Below are positions 40,804-54,944 of a stretch of DNA of 58,914 nt, piece by piece. The notes under the pieces are model-generated. The model was not told the origin of the DNA, searched no databases, and saw only the letters and a program-made list of their open reading frames with translations. The position numbers were made by a program, and so were the translations under genes. Numbering within the stretch: position 1 is the first letter of the stretch; each line of letters begins with the position of its first letter. This DNA is from a bacterium (GTDB lineage Bacteria > Patescibacteriota > Minisyncoccia > UBA6257 > JAGOQP01), in assembly GCA_021814445.1 (NCBI GenBank), contig JAKAIF010000002.1, forward strand, positions 1-58,914, read 5' to 3'.

Positions 40804-42075
40804 TTATAAAGCTAAATAATTCCTCGGATTTAAATCTCCTCCAAATGGCATTTTGGGACCACAAGAATTACTCTGACCAATACGAAATGTTGAAGAATCA
40901 TACACCCCAAAATGAAGGTGGGGACCTGTAGCATATCCCGTATTACCCGAATACCCAATCAATTGTCCTTTTTTAACACTATCCCCTTCTTTAACCACCT
41001 GAAGTGAAAGATGTGCATACAACGTGGTAAATCCGATAAGATGTTTAATAGCAACATATTTTCCATACGCCCCCTTACGACAATACAAATCTTGATTTGC
41101 AACCGAGATAACCGTTCCATCATATGCCGCAAAAAGAGGTGTTCCGACAGGCGCCCCAAAGTCCATACCATTATGATAGCCACTTTTATACAACTTCTTT
41201 GCTGATTTTGTATATCCTTGTTCTTGTGTAATATGCGGGTCAGAAAGTGGTACTGCTAAAATCCCCGATCCAGATTTTGGAAGATCTTTGTAATCAATCT
41301 TATCACGCAACGGAGCTTCTAATGCATCAATCTCAGCCGCAATTTCCGCCTGACGTTTTTCTAGTTCTTTTAAAGACTCCTGATACGACGCCTCTCTCGT
41401 TTTTGTATCTTTTAATACCTGATTTTTTTCTTGTTTCAACTCAGCTGCAATAAGCCTACGATTTTTTAAATTTTCTTGTTCTAGCTCTTTATCACTTTTC
41501 TTCTTTGCGGTTGAATCCAGGACCACCGTGAGAGTGTCATGGGCATTTTGTAGCTCTTGTATTTTTATAATAAGCGTCTGATTTAAATCGACGAGCCCCT
41601 GCATCGTTTGGATACCATCGGATAAGCTTTTTGCGCGTATAAATGAGACTAATGGGTTATCTTGCTCAGACACCTGCATCTGTTTGAATATTTCAGCCAC
41701 CGCTTCACCTTTCTGGGTTAAATCTTTTTCGGCAGAAATAATATCATCATGTAAAGAATCAATCTCCACATCAAGTTTTTTCACGGTTATTTGACTCGCG
41801 GCTATTCCAAGATCAGCCTGCTTTATAGTAGTGTCTATTTTTTTTAATTCCGAAGAAAGGGTTTGTTTTTGTTGTTGGGTCTCGGTTAATTTCTGTTGAT
41901 TCTCCAAAATCTTTTTTTGTATCTCAGCAAGCTCCTTATTGCGTTGATCAATTTGTGCTTTCGTATCAATAGCCACAGATACCGCAGACGCAAAATAAGG
42001 TATTCCGTAGAAAATACTCATACACACAATAATAATTACACAATAAAAACGTCGCAGTGTATATACAGTAGACAT
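40804..42075 (-). CDS. M23 peptidoglycan metalloendopeptidase with a long coiled coil (EnvC-like architecture)
   Basis: HNGMDFGAPVGTP and GPHLHFGV motifs. N-terminal TM plus about 250 aa of coiled coil. Confidence 0.85.
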   Translation of the reverse strand: MSTVYTLRRFYCVIIIVCMSIFYGIPYFASAVSVAIDTKAQIDQRNKELAEIQKKILENQQKLTETQQQKQTLSSELKKIDTTIKQADLGIAASQITVKKLDVEIDSLHDDIISAEKDLTQKGEAVAEIFKQMQVSEQDNPLVSFIRAKSLSDGIQTMQGLVDLNQTLIIKIQELQNAHDTLTVVLDSTAKKKSDKELEQENLKNRRLIAAELKQEKNQVLKDTKTREASYQESLKELEKRQAEIAAEIDALEAPLRDKIDYKDLPKSGSGILAVPLSDPHITQEQGYTKSAKKLYKSGYHNGMDFGAPVGTPLFAAYDGTVISVANQDLYCRKGAYGKYVAIKHLIGFTTLYAHLSLQVVKEGDSVKKGQLIGYSGNTGYATGPHLHFGVYDSSTFRIGQSNSCGPKMPFGGDLNPRNYLAL

Positions 42076-43562
42076 TATGGTGATACAGGTTCACGTGATA
42101 ATTCGCCAGCTATTTTTGCAATAGCAATGTCAATACGTCGCAATGATTCCTCTTTACCAAGCGCTTCTAAAATATCAAACGGCCCAGGAGAATTACGTTC
42201 TCCACAGAGAGCAACACGCAACGGCCACAACACCTCTCCCCTCCCCAATTTTTCAGCAACGGGCATAAGGACAGCTTCAAGATGAGCTGCGGTAAAGTCA
42301 ACGTCAGATTCATTACTCAATAAATTTCGTATGCCCGATAAATGATCCGCAGAAACCGCAAGAGATACCTTTTGCCATCCCAAGAGAGATACATCATATT
42401 CTCCAAGCACAAAAAAGAATTTTGCAAGATCAACAAAATCAGAAAGTTTTTTCATACGTTCCCGTTCCAATATTGCCGCTCGTTCCATAAGATGTGTTTG
42501 CATAGCCCACTCTTCAGGGACAAAAACTTTTAATTTCTCAATAAGTTCTTTAATAGGAAGTGCCTTGATGTATTGAGCATTGAACCAATCTAATTTTTCC
42601 ATATTAAATATACCTCCTGATTTTTGCACGCGTTTTAATGAAAATCGCTCAATCATTTCTGGGATAGTTAGAAGTTCTTGCTCATCCTGGGAACTCCACC
42701 CAAGCAGTACTAGAAAGTTTAATAATGCCTCCGGTAAATATCCATCTTTTAAATATTCAACGAATGAAGTTTCTAAACTACGTTTTGAAAGTTTTTTTCT
42801 GTCAGGAGTCAGTACGAGTGGCAAATGAGCATAGAGAACTTCATCAAGTCCAAGCATTCGTTGAATTAAAAGTTGTTTTGAGGTATTGGTAATATGATCT
42901 TCTCCGCGAATAATATGTGAAATTTTCATTTCATAATCATCAATAACATTCGCAAGATTAAAGAGGGGCGTAGATATATTACGCGCGATTACCATATCTC
43001 CTATGGTATCGCTCATAACTGATATAGTACCCCTAATAATATCGTGAAATGCCAACTCTATACCGAGAGGCACAACCAACCGTATAACCGAAGATTTGTT
43101 TTGTTTTAAATTATCAGAAATTTCCTCATCGCTTAAGTGACGACAGGTGCCTGTATATCTAGGAGTAAGACCATTTGCCATCATCGCACCACGCTGAGAT
43201 TCAAGTTCCTCTTTCGAACAAAAACAATAATATGCTTTCTTTTCAGTAAGAAGTTTCTCAATATATTTTTTATAGATATCGCCTCGTTCGGTTTGACGAT
43301 ATGGCCCATACGGCCCACCAATATCCGGACCCTCATCCCAATGTAAACCCAACGACTTTAAGCCGTCTAAAATTTCATTCTCATATATGGAAAGGGAACG
43401 CCCTGGATCAGTGTCTTCTATGCGTACCACAAATGAGCCGTGCTCTTTTTTGGCGAATAAATAATTATATAACGCGGCCCGCACCGTGCCTAAATGCAAA
43501 TGCCCCGTGGGAGATGGCGCAATACGTACCCGAATTGGTTGTTTTTCTGTCTTTTCGGTCAT
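42075..43562 (-). CDS. gltX: Glutamate--tRNA ligase
   Basis: PSPTGHLHLGT (HIGH) and KLSKR (KMSKS) motifs. Confidence 0.95.
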   Translation of the reverse strand: MTEKTEKQPIRVRIAPSPTGHLHLGTVRAALYNYLFAKKEHGSFVVRIEDTDPGRSLSIYENEILDGLKSLGLHWDEGPDIGGPYGPYRQTERGDIYKKYIEKLLTEKKAYYCFCSKEELESQRGAMMANGLTPRYTGTCRHLSDEEISDNLKQNKSSVIRLVVPLGIELAFHDIIRGTISVMSDTIGDMVIARNISTPLFNLANVIDDYEMKISHIIRGEDHITNTSKQLLIQRMLGLDEVLYAHLPLVLTPDRKKLSKRSLETSFVEYLKDGYLPEALLNFLVLLGWSSQDEQELLTIPEMIERFSLKRVQKSGGIFNMEKLDWFNAQYIKALPIKELIEKLKVFVPEEWAMQTHLMERAAILERERMKKLSDFVDLAKFFFVLGEYDVSLLGWQKVSLAVSADHLSGIRNLLSNESDVDFTAAHLEAVLMPVAEKLGRGEVLWPLRVALCGERNSPGPFDILEALGKEESLRRIDIAIAKIAGELSREPVSP

Positions 43563-43672
43563 ATGTACAGAGTATCAAAAAAACGAGATAAAATGAAGTG
43601 TTGTAAAGAAAACCATAAAAAAGTCCCGCTATTTCTAGCGAGATCTTTAAAATAAAAATAGGGATACTTTTT

Positions 43673-44047
43673 CTAACTTTGAGAAACTGGAAGAATCAGC
43701 ATCCCTTGATACAAGCTCATGATAGCTGTCGGGGGCACAACATGAGATGACTCTGATTGAAGAATGACAAGTCCTCCGAGATACTCCTTTGCCTTTTTGA
43801 GAATAGTCTTATTGACCTCATAATTGATACTAGAATCATTAATAAGAGGCATGGAAACATCTTCAGAATAAATAAGAGAGCTTACTAAGACGTTATCTTT
43901 ATTATCCTGCAGAAAATCAATTATAAGAAACCTATTTTGTTCATCATAATCATGAACAACGACGGGAATCTTATAGTGGTTTTCTATAAAATTTCGAAAC
44001 GTTTCATCTTTAAAGCTTTTTTGGGGGTGAAAAATATGGACCTCCAT
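43673..44047 (-). CDS. Hypothetical 124-aa protein
   Basis: GGAGA SD 7 nt upstream; own terminator. No family recognised. Confidence 0.5.
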   Translation of the reverse strand: MEVHIFHPQKSFKDETFRNFIENHYKIPVVVHDYDEQNRFLIIDFLQDNKDNVLVSSLIYSEDVSMPLINDSSINYEVNKTILKKAKEYLGGLVILQSESSHVVPPTAIMSLYQGMLILPVSQS

Positions 44048-44173
44048 ATCTTTTTCTCCTTCGTTAGTTTAGAAAAATATATCTAGAAAGAACCAAAAAG
44101 AGAATATACTAAAAATACAATCGTGTCAATACAATATTGAATACTCCCCTCTTTTTTGATACCATTTTTATAT

Positions 44174-44230
44174 TGCGGGATCGCCCGCCTCCTGCATGCG
44201 CAGGCATGGTGCAGGCAGGTCTAATGGTAG
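44174..44230 (+). pseudogene. Displaced 5' fragment of tRNA-Gln (nt 1-21) interrupted by a 35-nt GC-rich hairpin
   Basis: TGCGGGATCG (10/10 match) and GTCTAATGGTAG (12/12 match) to the intact tRNA at 44501-44521, in the same order. Confidence 0.65.
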
Positions 44231-44244
44231 AAGCCCCAACTTCC

Positions 44245-44493
44245 ATGTGGTACGTTTATATGCTAAAAAGTAACACGAGAAATTGGTACTACGTAGGAAG
44301 CACAAATGATGTAGAAAGAAGAGAAAAAGAACATAAACATGGACTAGTAAAATCAACTCGCAATCATCGTCCACTAGTAAAATGTTTTGTAAGAATGTTC
44401 GAGACAGAGAAAGAAGCAAGATTATACGAACAAAAATTAAAAAAATGTAGAAGAGAAAAAGAAGGGATAATAAAAAATATAATTAATTCGTGA
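44245..44493 (+). CDS. GIY-YIG nuclease domain protein (UPF0213/YhbQ-like)
   Basis: MWYVYMLKS...WYYVGSTNDVERREKEH...E...E pattern. The track start at 44137 reads through the tRNA fragment. Confidence 0.8.
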   Translation: MWYVYMLKSNTRNWYYVGSTNDVERREKEHKHGLVKSTRNHRPLVKCFVRMFETEKEARLYEQKLKKCRREKEGIIKNIINS

Positions 44494-44500
44494 ACACTGC

Positions 44501-44571
44501 TGCGGGATCGTCTAATGGTAGGACACATGACTCTGAATCATGTAATCTAGGTTCGAGCCCTGGTCCCGCAG
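44501..44571 (+). tRNA. tRNA-Gln (anticodon CUG)
   Basis: Manual cloverleaf: TGCGGGA/TCCCGCA acceptor, GTCT/GGAC D-stem, CATGA-CTCTGAA-TCATG, CTAGG-TTCGAGC-CCTGG. No encoded CCA. Confidence 0.9.
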
Positions 44572-44593
44572 CAGTGTTCATAAAAATAGTTAA

Positions 44594-44648
44594 TAGGACA
44601 CATGACTCTGAATCATGTAATCTAGGTTCGAGCCCTGGTCCCGCAGCA
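44594..44648 (+). repeat. Perfect 55-nt duplicate of the tRNA-Gln 3' part (nt 19-71 plus CA)
   Basis: Identical to 44519-44573. Ends 1 nt before ATG 44650. Confidence 0.9.
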
Positions 44649-44649
44649 T

Positions 44650-45366
44650 ATGCAAAAAACAATAAAGATAAAAACAAAAGATAACCACTATATCTACGGA
44701 AATCTATACAAGGCCAACAAGAAACCAAAAGGGCTCGTTATTTTTTGTCATGGATTCACTGGGCACAGAAATGAACACATATTTTTCAATGGGGCAATAT
44801 TTTTTTCACAAAAGAATTATGATACGTTCCGCTTTAATTTCTATGGGCCAGAGAAAGGAGCGAGGCATTTTGAAGAAACCACAATAAGCCAACACGGCAA
44901 AGATTTAACAACAGTTATCAATTATTTCAAGAATACCTATCAGAAGATTTATCTAGTGGGACATAGTTACGGAGGAACCTCAATTCTCTTCTCAGATACA
45001 CAACATGTTTCTGCCGTAGTGCTTTGGGATGCGTCCTATGTTGTCGGGGAGAATGAGAAAAAAGATTCTGATTGGAAGATAATGAATGGAGAATATTATA
45101 TTGACTGGGGAATGTCTATAAAAGTGGGCAAAAAATTTACAGATGAATTATTTAATTTCCCAGACTGTGGAGATATGGCCTCAAAAATTAAGAAACCTAT
45201 TCAATATATTGGAGCAGGAAAAGGATTAGACGCAAAAAAATATTACAAAGCAACCAACACAACAAAAGACATTACAATCATCAAAAATGCCAGCCATAAT
45301 TTTAATTCCCCAGAAACTGAAAAAGAGTTATTTACAGAAACATACAACTGGATAAAAAGATTTTAG
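44650..45366 (+). CDS. Alpha/beta hydrolase
   Basis: GHSYGG nucleophile elbow, HGFTGH, C-terminal ASH. Confidence 0.8.
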   Translation: MQKTIKIKTKDNHYIYGNLYKANKKPKGLVIFCHGFTGHRNEHIFFNGAIFFSQKNYDTFRFNFYGPEKGARHFEETTISQHGKDLTTVINYFKNTYQKIYLVGHSYGGTSILFSDTQHVSAVVLWDASYVVGENEKKDSDWKIMNGEYYIDWGMSIKVGKKFTDELFNFPDCGDMASKIKKPIQYIGAGKGLDAKKYYKATNTTKDITIIKNASHNFNSPETEKELFTETYNWIKRF

Positions 45367-45390
45367 TGCTCCATTTAGAAAATATACAAA

Positions 45391-45416
45391 ATAGTACCTC
45401 TGTGGTACTATTTTTA
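45391..45416 (+). terminator. Intrinsic terminator
   Basis: ATAGTACC-tctgt-GGTACTAT followed by TTTT. Confidence 0.6.
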
Positions 45417-46709: not shown

Positions 46710-46949
46710 ATGTGGTATATCTATATTCTTAAATGCAAAGATGGGAGTTTATATACTGGTATCACCACAGATGTATCACGGCGTTTTAATGAACACAAAA
46801 ATAAAACTGGCGGACACTACACCCGCTCTCACCCCGTGAAATCTATTGTATATACCGAAAGAGTAAGAACACAATCCAAAGCGCTCAAACGAGAACATCA
46901 GATAAAAAATCTCAAAAGAGAGGGAAAATTAAAACTTATTAAGAATTGA
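46710..46949 (+). CDS. GIY-YIG nuclease domain protein (UPF0213/YhbQ-like), second copy
   Basis: MWYIYILKCKDGSLYTGITTDVSRRFNEH...E...E. Confidence 0.85.
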   Translation: MWYIYILKCKDGSLYTGITTDVSRRFNEHKNKTGGHYTRSHPVKSIVYTERVRTQSKALKREHQIKNLKREGKLKLIKN

Positions 46950-54129: not shown

Positions 54130-54142
54130 TTTTTTACGCCGT

Positions 54143-54269
54143 GCCGATGATCCTGACGTTCATCGGGACAACCCATCTCTTACGAAGGGATTACTCCCTG
54201 CCTACGCAGGCAGGGAGTAATTGCCTGTCCCATTACATACGAAGTATGTTTCGGGAAAGCTACATCGGC
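54143..54269 (-). ncRNA. Structured GC-enriched element upstream of tRNA-Thr (unclassified)
   Basis: Nested helices: GCCGATG/CATCGGC, GGGACA/TGTCCC, perfect 13-bp ATTACTCCCTGCC/GGCAGGGAGTAAT, ACATAC/GTATGT. Confidence 0.3.
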
Positions 54270-54329
54270 AACACAAAACCTAGTAAAACAATACCAAAAA
54301 TGGACCCTGGGGTCAAAATTTATTTTGAA

Positions 54330-54759: not shown

Positions 54760-54824
54760 AGTATATAGCCCCGACGCTCTTTTGGAAAGAGGTCGGGGTC
54801 CCGACCGAAGCGTCGGGATATTAA
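54760..54824 (-). repeat. Double-hairpin plus -10 cassette, copy B
   Basis: Minus strand: TTAATATCCCGACGCTTCGGTCGGGACCCCGACCTCTTTCCAAAAGAGCGTCGGGGCTATATACT, 7 nt before ATG 54752. Confidence 0.8.
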
Positions 54825-54944
54825 GAAGTAAGTAATATTAAAATAATAATCAGAGAATTTATTAGTTTTTTGTTTTCGTTTTATTTCGCGAATCCCGGTT
54901 GTGAGAAAGCGATGCATTATGATTCTTTAGGAAAGCTTTCTCTA

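Follow-up and report, generated by a model that had tools for sequence, protein, structure and literature searches.

GIY-YIG endonucleases that act on transfer RNA (tRNA) genes have been described in bacteriophages. SegB, a GIY-YIG homing endonuclease of the T4/T6 phage tRNA gene cluster, cuts within tRNA genes with a preference for RAWTSGAAC, which corresponds to the T-loop, is enriched near tRNA genes among 296 phage genomes, and causes tRNA-Tyr and segB to be duplicated jointly in tandem by a recombination-dependent route (PMC2330249; PMC13096335). Dunin-Horkawicz et al. described the prokaryotic Slx1-like proteins as consisting of the GIY-YIG domain in its minimal, stand-alone form (PMC1564403). 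Here, a small GIY-YIG gene situated inside a tRNA-Gln gene was analyzed in a stretch of 58,914 nucleotides (nt) from a bacterium of the Patescibacteriota (GenBank assembly GCA_021814445.1, contig JAKAIF010000002.1), referred to below as the window. Two outer pieces of a tRNA-Gln gene flank 363 nt that contain an open reading frame (ORF) of 82 codons and an intact tRNA-Gln(CUG). The resident tRNA-Gln(CUG) has probably, though by no means certainly, been invaded by a homing-type selfish cassette of approximately 360 bp that consists of a GIY-YIG nuclease gene and a replacement tRNA-Gln, and the outer pieces are best explained as the resident gene, remaining in two dead parts at its own promoter and terminator. 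What has been observed is how the locus is built, that a relative has the site without the cassette, that the ORF is under selection, that the cassette is less diverged than its surroundings, and that the architecture recurs, together with remnants and chimeric copies. The locus is one instance of a large and apparently undescribed family of miniature nuclease cassettes in tRNA genes.

The cassette resembles SegB in its GIY-YIG domain, in the location of the nuclease gene among tRNA genes, in the combination of an endonuclease gene and a full tRNA in one segment, and in the absence of an integrase. It differs in that SegB is a phage protein of approximately 220 residues with a DNA-binding region, whereas the cassette protein is chromosomally encoded, has 82 residues and only the catalytic domain, and shares sequence similarity with SegB solely within that domain. 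Furthermore, the SegB gene lies between tRNA genes and not inside one, and descriptions of it include no palindromic plug, no displaced 5' fragment, and no tRNA flanked by an inverted repeat. The best sequence match is to the UPF0213/YhbQ/prokaryotic Slx1-like proteins (1zg2, 1ywl), which are of the same size and single-domain; the literature gives no function for them, and no tie of this family to tRNA genes or mobile behavior was found there. Integrase-borne islands and prophages also target tRNA genes, restore a working tRNA, and leave a displaced partial copy as a repeat, but the cassette has no recombinase, a cargo of approximately 0.36 kb compared with 5-100 kb, and imprecise junctions, and its Gln-type duplicates the 5' part or the whole gene and not the 3' end. 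In fungal mitochondria, the GIY-YIG ORF of Allomyces atp6 is reportedly a mobile endonuclease ORF that carries a replacement gene segment. The GC clusters or double-hairpin elements of fungal mitochondria are short GC-rich palindromes in AT-rich genomes that can nest and are found beside such ORFs. Common to these systems and the cassette are an endonuclease ORF in an essential gene, a foreign copy of the displaced part, and a pseudogene fragment left behind; the fungal systems differ in being organellar, in having protein-coding targets, and in having larger endonucleases, and we know of no case among them in which one palindrome always occupies the same nucleotide of the displaced copy. Neither small cellular GIY-YIG genes inside tRNA genes nor the palindrome were found described in the full-text literature, in which many subscription papers are outside coverage. 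The novelty asserted by the first-pass annotation of the window, which was made from the sequence alone, thus applies to the layout; since SegB has been described, the idea itself is not without precedent.

The features of the locus are given in Table 1. The intact tRNA-Gln was predicted by ARAGORN (44501-44572, anticodon ctg) as one of two tRNAs in the window, and the Rfam tRNA model matched 44501-44571 with 60.9 bits (E = 2e-12). Its nt 1-10 (TGCGGGATCG) occur in the window only at 44174 and 44501, and its nt 10-21 (GTCTAATGGTAG) only at 44219 and 44510, compared with chance expectations of approximately 0.1 matches for the 10-mer and 0.007 for the 12-mer. The 55 nt at 44594-44648 are identical throughout to 44519-44573, with a leftward extension of 0 nt; in Rfam they scored 28.9 bits, marginally below the tRNA threshold of 29. 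The 36-nt insert between the two 5' parts has a G+C content of approximately 75%, against 38% for the window. The following elements had been placed correctly by the first-pass annotation: the intact tRNA, the two-part 5' match at 44174-44183 and 44219-44230, the perfect 3' copy, and the 363-bp insert (44231-44593) that carries just a GIY-YIG ORF and the intact tRNA. Its account did not include the GC-rich insert after nt 10, the inverted repeat around the intact tRNA, or the recurrence elsewhere.

Table 1. Features of the tRNA-Gln locus, in window coordinates.
Feature	Coordinates	Strand	Remarks
Promoter-like flank of resident tRNA-Gln	44137..44165	+	TTGAAT, 17-nt spacer, TACCAT; ends 8 nt ahead of tRNA nt 1
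Displaced 5' fragment, part 1 (tRNA-Gln nt 1-10, TGCGGGATCG)	44174..44183	+	Exact match to 44501-44510; same arrangement in relatives
36-nt GC-rich insert at tRNA position 10/11	44184..44219	+	Diverged PAL1 with PAL2 nested inside
Displaced 5' fragment, part 2 (tRNA-Gln nt 11-21, TCTAATGGTAG)	44220..44230	+	Exact match to 44511-44521
Left-edge spacer of cassette, 14 nt	44231..44244	+	No tRNA similarity; diverged 14-nt spacer in L004
Gene for a GIY-YIG nuclease of 82 aa with only the catalytic domain (minimal type, UPF0213/Slx1-like)	44245..44493	+	Pfam PF01541
Inverted repeat, left arm (GTGAACACTGC)	44490..44500	+	Overlaps ORF stop codon; pairs with 44571-44581
Intact tRNA-Gln(CUG) within insert, CCA not encoded	44501..44571	+	ARAGORN, Rfam tRNA
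Inverted repeat, right arm (GCAGTGTTCAT)	44571..44581	+	Begins at discriminator base
Right-edge spacer of cassette, 12 nt	44582..44593	+	Differs in L004
Displaced 3' fragment (tRNA-Gln nt 19-71 + CA), then native trailer	44594..44648	+	Perfect 55-nt copy of 44519-44573
Hairpin terminator	45388..45414	.	Terminator-like; homologous hairpin directly after 3' fragment/trailer in L004

A protein search with the 82-aa ORF yielded four clusters, and the corresponding contigs were retrieved; L001 and L002 belong to the lineage of the window (W), and L003 and L004 to a relative (R). The R nuclease is 81% identical to that of W, and the upstream gene order (M23 peptidase, GluRS, 123-aa ORF) is the same. 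On the 5' side of the R locus, tRNA nt 1-10 and nt 11-20 are separated by the 18-nt insert CCTGCCTGCGCAGGCAGG, and a spacer of 14 nt leads to the ORF; on its 3' side, it has an intact, identical tRNA-Gln with a leader/trailer repeat, followed by a 3' fragment of nt 16-71 in which one base is substituted and the T-loop holds the 18-nt insert CCTGCATGCGCAGGCATG. The conserved flank TTGAA(T/A), 17 nt, TACCAT borders the 5' piece in both lineages, and the trailer (T/C)ATGCAAAAA after the 3' piece is common to W and R (L004). The flank would serve as a promoter; it agrees with the consensus at 8 of 12 positions, which is under the scan threshold, and in an alignment it is kept in the window, L004, and L088. 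The last of these contigs, which represents a lineage designated E, was reached by a search with the neighboring 124-aa ORF. In L088, the upstream flank is joined directly to an uninterrupted tRNA-Gln of the same sequence as in the window, with no palindrome and no ORF, and the contig ends at the 3' end of the tRNA. The conserved outer flanks, together with this uninterrupted gene, support insertion into a resident gene. Thus, the comparison of the syntenic locus that the first-pass annotation had recommended revealed the predicted uninterrupted gene, and the flanks and L088 uphold its proposal that a cassette with a complete tRNA-Gln was inserted into the D-arm region of a resident copy; its terms "selfish" and "compensating for its own damage" are still conjecture.

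The cassette is polymorphic among relatives, being present in L003 and L004 and absent from L088, where the gene is uninterrupted, and its presence among relatives is patchy. The GluRS of E is 98.4% identical to that of R (L003) and 74.8% identical to that of W, whereas the 124-aa ORF of E is 84% identical to that of W and 63% identical to that of R; the region is therefore a mosaic. The mosaic segment between GluRS and the tRNA (L003, L088, window 42075-44173) also contains ORFs of 141 and 164 aa that are found in E and/or R and are absent from the window. At the other end of the locus, an alpha/beta-hydrolase gene (44650-45366) begins within the native tRNA trailer (ATGCAAAAA) and parts the trailer from the hairpin at 45388-45414. 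Since trailer and hairpin are contiguous in L004, the hydrolase gene appears to have been gained or lost in a separate event at this hotspot. Three independent assemblies (L003, L087, L088) are broken inside or exactly at the end of the tRNA-Gln. Because an identical tRNA occurs in several sequence contexts of the same communities, such loci fragment metagenome assemblies; the displaced fragments and plugged copies will also confuse tRNA annotation.

The 18-nt insert of R, here called PAL1 (CCTGCCTGC/GCAGGCAGG), is a perfect palindrome that is symmetric through its center, and its position and the order of the surrounding parts recur widely. For a survey of genomes, an alignment of four proteins was scanned against one genome per GTDB species; 141 relatives were confirmed, and 80 were retrieved. 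A tRNA on the same strand was located within 250 nt of the ORF in 72 of the 80 genome loci. When up to 3 mismatches were allowed, PAL1 was found at 24 species-level genome loci of Patescibacteria, upstream of the ORF in 22 and in a full-length second copy downstream in two (L022, L026). The 22 loci, whose lineages include Saccharibacteria, Nomurabacteria, Parcubacteria, Levyibacteriota, and Paceibacterota, have PAL1 35-40 nt 5' of the start codon, where it splits nt 10 from nt 11 in a 5' fragment of tRNA-Gln whose end lies at nt 14-27; the ORF is followed at a distance of 1-80 nt by an intact tRNA-Gln (CUG or UUG). At L027, PAL1 is inside a tRNA-Glu fragment. Metagenomes were surveyed by scanning for TCG + PAL1 + TNTAA, a pattern not conditioned on the protein, and at least 120 contigs with the palindrome in a tRNA-Gln D-arm were matched, of which 80 were retrieved. 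The canonical order of 5' fragment, PAL1, GIY-YIG ORF, and intact tRNA was present in 49 of these; approximately 15 were ORF-less remnants with the 5' fragment, PAL1, and an intact tRNA (only 6 nt apart in L120), and in approximately 10 the ORF was upstream of a full-length PAL1-bearing copy. Truncated ORFs were found in L024, L067, and L085, and most relatives have no 3' fragment. The search for further copies within tRNA genes of relatives, suggested at the outset, was thus amply rewarded in both genomes and metagenome contigs, and the recurrence of the architecture in many other genomes establishes the short 5' match as real, removing the doubt that had been raised about its significance.

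This recurrence also bears on the reading that two tandem tRNA-Gln genes are decaying in place with an unrelated small gene between them by chance. Tandem tRNA copies are common in bacteria, and full-length tandem second copies are present in L022, L026, and L166. Decay of this kind was named in the first-pass annotation as the outcome that would overturn its model, but it is contradicted by more than 70 independent loci that agree in how the parts are ordered, in the nucleotide at which the 18-mer stands, and in the family to which the gene belongs. Neither the 10-mer nor the 12-mer match is repeated elsewhere in the window, the outer pieces have native flanks, a relative has a single uninterrupted gene, and decay would not give a perfect 55-nt copy beside diverged spacers. 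This explanation is considered very improbable.

Even less credence is given to the view that the outer pieces form a working split or intron-containing tRNA gene from whose transcript the palindrome and the 363-nt insert are removed. The insert positions do carry introns in archaeal tRNAs, and the 3' fragment has changed at 1 in 55 nt between the window and L004 against a synonymous divergence (dS) of 0.67 for the cassette, a conservation far above that of the adjacent spacers. However, no ribozyme or intron family was found by Rfam, the palindrome lacks bulge-helix-bulge geometry, an intact copy always adjoins the interrupted one, the 3' piece is absent from most relatives, and in many displaced copies the 5' acceptor strand is unable to pair with the 3' strand. 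No Rfam intron family was matched at E <= 10 in 43600-45000. The permissive search of that interval, together with searches at gathering threshold of the whole window and 20 related loci, returned just tRNAs and one signal recognition particle RNA, and Rfam has no family for the palindrome, any intron, or the motif A described below in these sequences.

The 82-aa protein is a single domain. It matches Pfam GIY-YIG (PF01541) over residues 1-70 with E = 8e-15, with only a weak overlapping match to T5orf172 besides, and Y5, Y16, G18, R26, H30, and E62 are invariant in an alignment of four clade members. Sequence matches in the PDB are to the UPF0213 proteins 1zg2 (E = 1e-10) and 1ywl and, more weakly, to SLX1 and I-TevI; the NCBIfam group I intron endonuclease model TIGR01453 gave 20.5 bits against a cut-off of 56, over residues 4-40 only. 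Its homologues have 79-95 residues. A second small GIY-YIG gene (46710-46949, + strand, 79 aa, 36% identical to the first) is located 2.2 kb downstream, with a terminator hairpin after it and no adjacent tRNA or tRNA fragment, which indicates that UPF0213-type genes in this genome are not all tRNA-linked. The D-stem remnant AGGA was considered as a ribosome-binding site of the cassette ORF and was not used as evidence, as it is present in only about one third of the loci and start calls are unreliable. The other genes within 3 kb encode the M23 peptidase, GluRS, an unknown ORF, the hydrolase, an MBL-fold protein, a further unknown ORF, and an MFS transporter. As the first-pass annotation had noted, there is no integrase: neither a tyrosine nor a serine recombinase is among the genes within 3 kb, and the insert itself has a single 82-codon ORF.

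Divergence was compared for one genome pair, W and R. The nuclease ORF has a dS of 0.67, a ratio of nonsynonymous to synonymous divergence (dN/dS) of 0.13, and a nucleotide identity of 85%, compared with 1.73, 0.12, and 71%, respectively, for GluRS; for the 124-aa ORF, dS is saturated, dN/dS is not computable, and nucleotide identity is 67%. By these values, the nuclease ORF evolves under purifying selection, and its divergence is well below that of the neighboring host genes. W and R were found together in the same two samples, and this co-occurrence and the lower divergence of the cassette would fit transfer between the lineages after their split. A single base distinguishes the 55-nt 3' fragments of W and R despite the cassette dS and the differing adjacent spacers, which suggests that the insertions were recent and independent, that the intact copy alongside was a donor in gene conversion, or that selection has acted.

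Purifying selection of this strength is also what a host-beneficial or domesticated module would show, in which the nuclease helps an essential tRNA gene, present as a single copy, to be locally duplicated, repaired, or turned over, or acts on tRNA or pre-tRNA, and in which fragments and palindromes arise as by-products or have a regulatory role, such as that of an operator or an mRNA 5' hairpin. Consistent with such a module, the ORF is intact at most loci across deep lineages, and its co-orientation and tight spacing with the tRNA are constant, implying co-transcription. TRNA amplification by SegB benefits the carrier phage (PMC13096335), and a Slx1-like domain fused to a TrmH-like tRNA methyltransferase is on record (PMC1564403). 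On the other hand, a close relative is without the cassette, ORF-less remnants are common, a functional gene has been disrupted instead of added to, the cassette is less diverged than its host context, and no GIY-YIG protein is known to act on RNA. Domestication is accordingly regarded as unlikely.

The insert at nt 10/11 is the most invariant feature of the family. The symmetry of PAL1, which includes its center, argues for a role at the DNA level, as a dimer binding site or in fold-back synthesis, rather than for a mere RNA hairpin. The 36-nt insert of the window (CCCGCCT...GTGCAGGCAGG) is a PAL1 with two substitutions that is split by a second 18-mer, PAL2 (CCTGCATGCGCAGGCATG, 44191-44208), which is not palindromic. 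PAL2 is also found in the T-loop (54/55) of displaced copies at L004, L024, and L135 and, in reverse orientation, nested within PAL1 at L019 and L035; a third variant, an anticodon-loop insert, is present at L022. Uninterrupted D-arm cores at Gln-type loci numbered 87 within intact tRNAs, plus 2 in intact tRNAs cut by contig ends. Across all Gln-type loci, no displaced copy with an uninterrupted nt 10/11 and no intact tRNA carrying a PAL1 insert was found. At L024, L166, and L153 the displaced copies are chimeric: nt 1-10 match the neighboring copy and are unable to pair with the 3' acceptor strand of the copy in which they stand, the expected outcome if homologous repair of a break near nt 10/11 had co-converted them. 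At L026 and L153, the displaced tRNA-Gln differs from the intact copy by compensated stem changes, so the intact copy there was evidently imported.

These inserts have suggested an alternative in which the GC-rich palindromes (PAL1, and the Ser-type motifs A/A' described below) are the ends of a transposon that are read as hairpins or cruciforms by a Slx1-like nuclease and inserted into the loops of single-stranded or extruded tRNA genes, in the manner of IS200/IS605 or REP/RAYT elements and unlike homing through double-strand-break repair. The protein falls in the Slx1/UPF0213 branch, and eukaryotic Slx1 is structure-specific. The perfect symmetry of PAL1, including its center, would suit recognition at the DNA level; inserts are at or near loops (D-arm, anticodon loop, T-loop, and the apex of another palindrome), PAL2 occurs in both orientations, the Ser-type order resembles a target duplication outside terminal inverted repeats, and PAL1 is also found away from GIY-YIG genes (L027:3967), as is a PAL1-like hairpin with one mismatch at 54196 in the window. 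Nevertheless, no GIY-YIG transposase is known, the Gln-type ORF is without two flanking half-palindromes, the chimeric copies with co-converted nt 1-10 indicate homologous repair, and the length of duplicated tRNA ranges from 3 nt to the whole gene, a range that a fixed staggered cut would not yield. A hairpin-end transposon is therefore thought rather improbable.

The inverted repeat GTGAACACTGC/GCAGTGTTCAT lengthens the acceptor stem of the intact tRNA by 11 pairs (folding z = -5.45). Leader/trailer pairing contiguous with the acceptor stem amounts to 11 bp in the window, 8 in L004, 10 in L022, 9 in L024 and L115, 15 in L026, 13 in L135, and 7 in L166. Pairing of 7-17 bp is confined to loci with a displaced copy downstream; elsewhere it is 0-1 bp, and in 76 control tRNAs 0-2 bp. 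The repeat sequences differ among loci and still pair, with some G-T pairs, and the right arm is sometimes an inverted copy of the last codons of the ORF. The repeat may be a selected processing stem that shields the folding of the inner tRNA from competing fragments or, alternatively, the footprint of fold-back synthesis at cassette capture. The tRNAs flanked by inverted repeats were also considered as a distinct lineage, and this was rejected, as their loci are scattered on a neighbor-joining protein tree, itself weak at approximately 80 residues.

Invasion by a homing-type cassette would proceed as follows. By analogy with SegB, the nuclease would cut tRNA-gene DNA at a main site near D-arm nt 10/11 and a secondary one in the T-loop, and recombinational repair from a cassette-bearing copy would then copy the ORF and tRNA into the broken gene. 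The 18-nt palindrome would act as a plug that destroys the cut site in non-essential copies and would spread by the same repair, taking the adjacent nt 1-10 along, while the nuclease gene would be transcribed from the captured tRNA promoter.

Several points weigh against this reading. The intact tRNA-Gln that the cassette restores does not differ from the uninvaded allele, so a nuclease that cuts tRNA-Gln should cut its own genome. In classical homing, self-cutting is avoided by destruction of the site; the constant interruption of displaced copies at nt 10/11 would fit immunity of this kind. The DNA-binding domain that confers specificity in known homing endonucleases is absent, the 82-aa protein ending after the catalytic domain, and we infer every enzymatic step, cleavage and target included. 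Breakpoints beside the ORF range from nt 14 to nt 27, and the junction overlap is 3 nt in the window (TAG) and 5 nt in L004 (TGGTA); such variable breakpoints and overlaps are not those of a precise site-specific reaction, and the TAG overlap, which the first-pass annotation had offered as a target-site duplication, is not a fixed one, given the TGGTA of the 81%-identical relative. The low dS is that of 82 codons in an AT-rich gene. L088 stops exactly at the 3' end of the tRNA and could be a deletion derivative in place of a never-invaded allele, in which case the ORF and palindrome could have been lost through recombination between the two nt 1-10 copies. Finally, carriage by phages was considered and rejected: no close relative of the nuclease was found in viral contigs, which gave four distant matches (30-35% identity), none beside a tRNA.

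The same logic, with other GC-rich hairpins, is found at other tRNAs and in other phyla. There are Tyr-type loci (L047, L055, L060, L074), Glu-type loci (L039, L077, L092, L149), a Ser-type locus in Omnitrophota (L070), and Gln-types in Elusimicrobia (L028) and at L057, all with the hairpin placed in either the D-loop or the anticodon loop of a displaced 5' fragment; at L070 the layout of the window locus is matched exactly, with the break at 37/38. A further 42 Ser-type loci in Chloroflexota, Bacteroidota, Acidobacteriota, and Ignavibacteria have the ORF downstream of an intact tRNA-Ser, whose 3' end is followed by motif A, the ORF, the inverted motif A', and a repeat of that 3' end. The repeat, of 10-17 nt, is present in 29 of the 42, often with motif A again afterwards. 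Motif A is CTRCGC...GCTWCG...TGGCARGCC (L030-L086, e.g., L083:54-520); the tRNA CCA and 3 nt pair with a downstream NNN'TGG, and this pairing covaries. CCTGCGC and GGCAGG are common to PAL1 and motif A, a resemblance taken only as a lead to possible kinship. Motif A also occurs in tandem arrays (L038, L042). Arrays of partial tRNA copies (Glu, Ser) with GC-rich loop hairpins are situated beside the nuclease gene at L039:2350-2560, L045:1680-1840, L063:1060-1850, and L078:1379-1571, and the interrupted copies suggest repeated invasions or nuclease-driven local duplication.

A broader proposal, advanced tentatively and held to be a good deal less than probable, is that a nuclease of approximately 80 residues and an 18-nt plug form a self-propagating gene-replacement system for tRNA genes, with related elements acting likewise at tRNA-Ser, Tyr, and Glu in several bacterial phyla. 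The nuclease would break the host tRNA gene at a conserved D-arm position, and repair would install the plug and kill the resident copy. The cassette tRNA would then be the only working copy, so that the host could not lose the element, a form of addiction through essential-gene replacement.

If the invasion reading is true, a biological role would be provided for the tRNA-gene-associated clade of stand-alone UPF0213/Slx1-like GIY-YIG proteins, and the cassettes would be among the smallest autonomous mobile elements, at approximately 0.3 kb with one catalytic domain and no DNA-binding domain. Cellular tRNA genes, notably those in the reduced genomes of Patescibacteria, would be targeted by nuclease-driven invasion as well as by integrases. 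The presence of the palindrome in every dead copy and never in a live one offers an experimental handle on the self-cutting puzzle of an element that regenerates its target. A compact nuclease that reads a feature of tRNA genes or an 18-bp palindrome is of possible enzymological interest.

Two other structured elements were observed in the window. Approximately 165 nt at 54130-54290 (minus strand), just upstream of a tRNA-Thr(CGU), fold strongly (z = -6.2), and central in them is the PAL1-like hairpin mentioned above, CCCTGCCTACGCAGGCAGGG (54196-54215), which has no Rfam match. A plugged tRNA-Thr copy was considered for this segment and rejected, as a gap-tolerant alignment scored 51.6 against a shuffle mean of 50.7; the segment could be an unknown small RNA that took up the same palindrome. 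A GC-rich two-hairpin element of approximately 65 nt (ATATCCCGACGCTTCGGTCGGGACCCCGACCTCTTT.AAAAAGAGCGTCGGGGCTATATAC) occurs at 13262-13330 (+) and 54760-54825 (-), 41 kb apart. It matches no Rfam family at gathering threshold, and both copies are located just upstream of an ATG, making it a candidate 5' leader element or miniature repeat.

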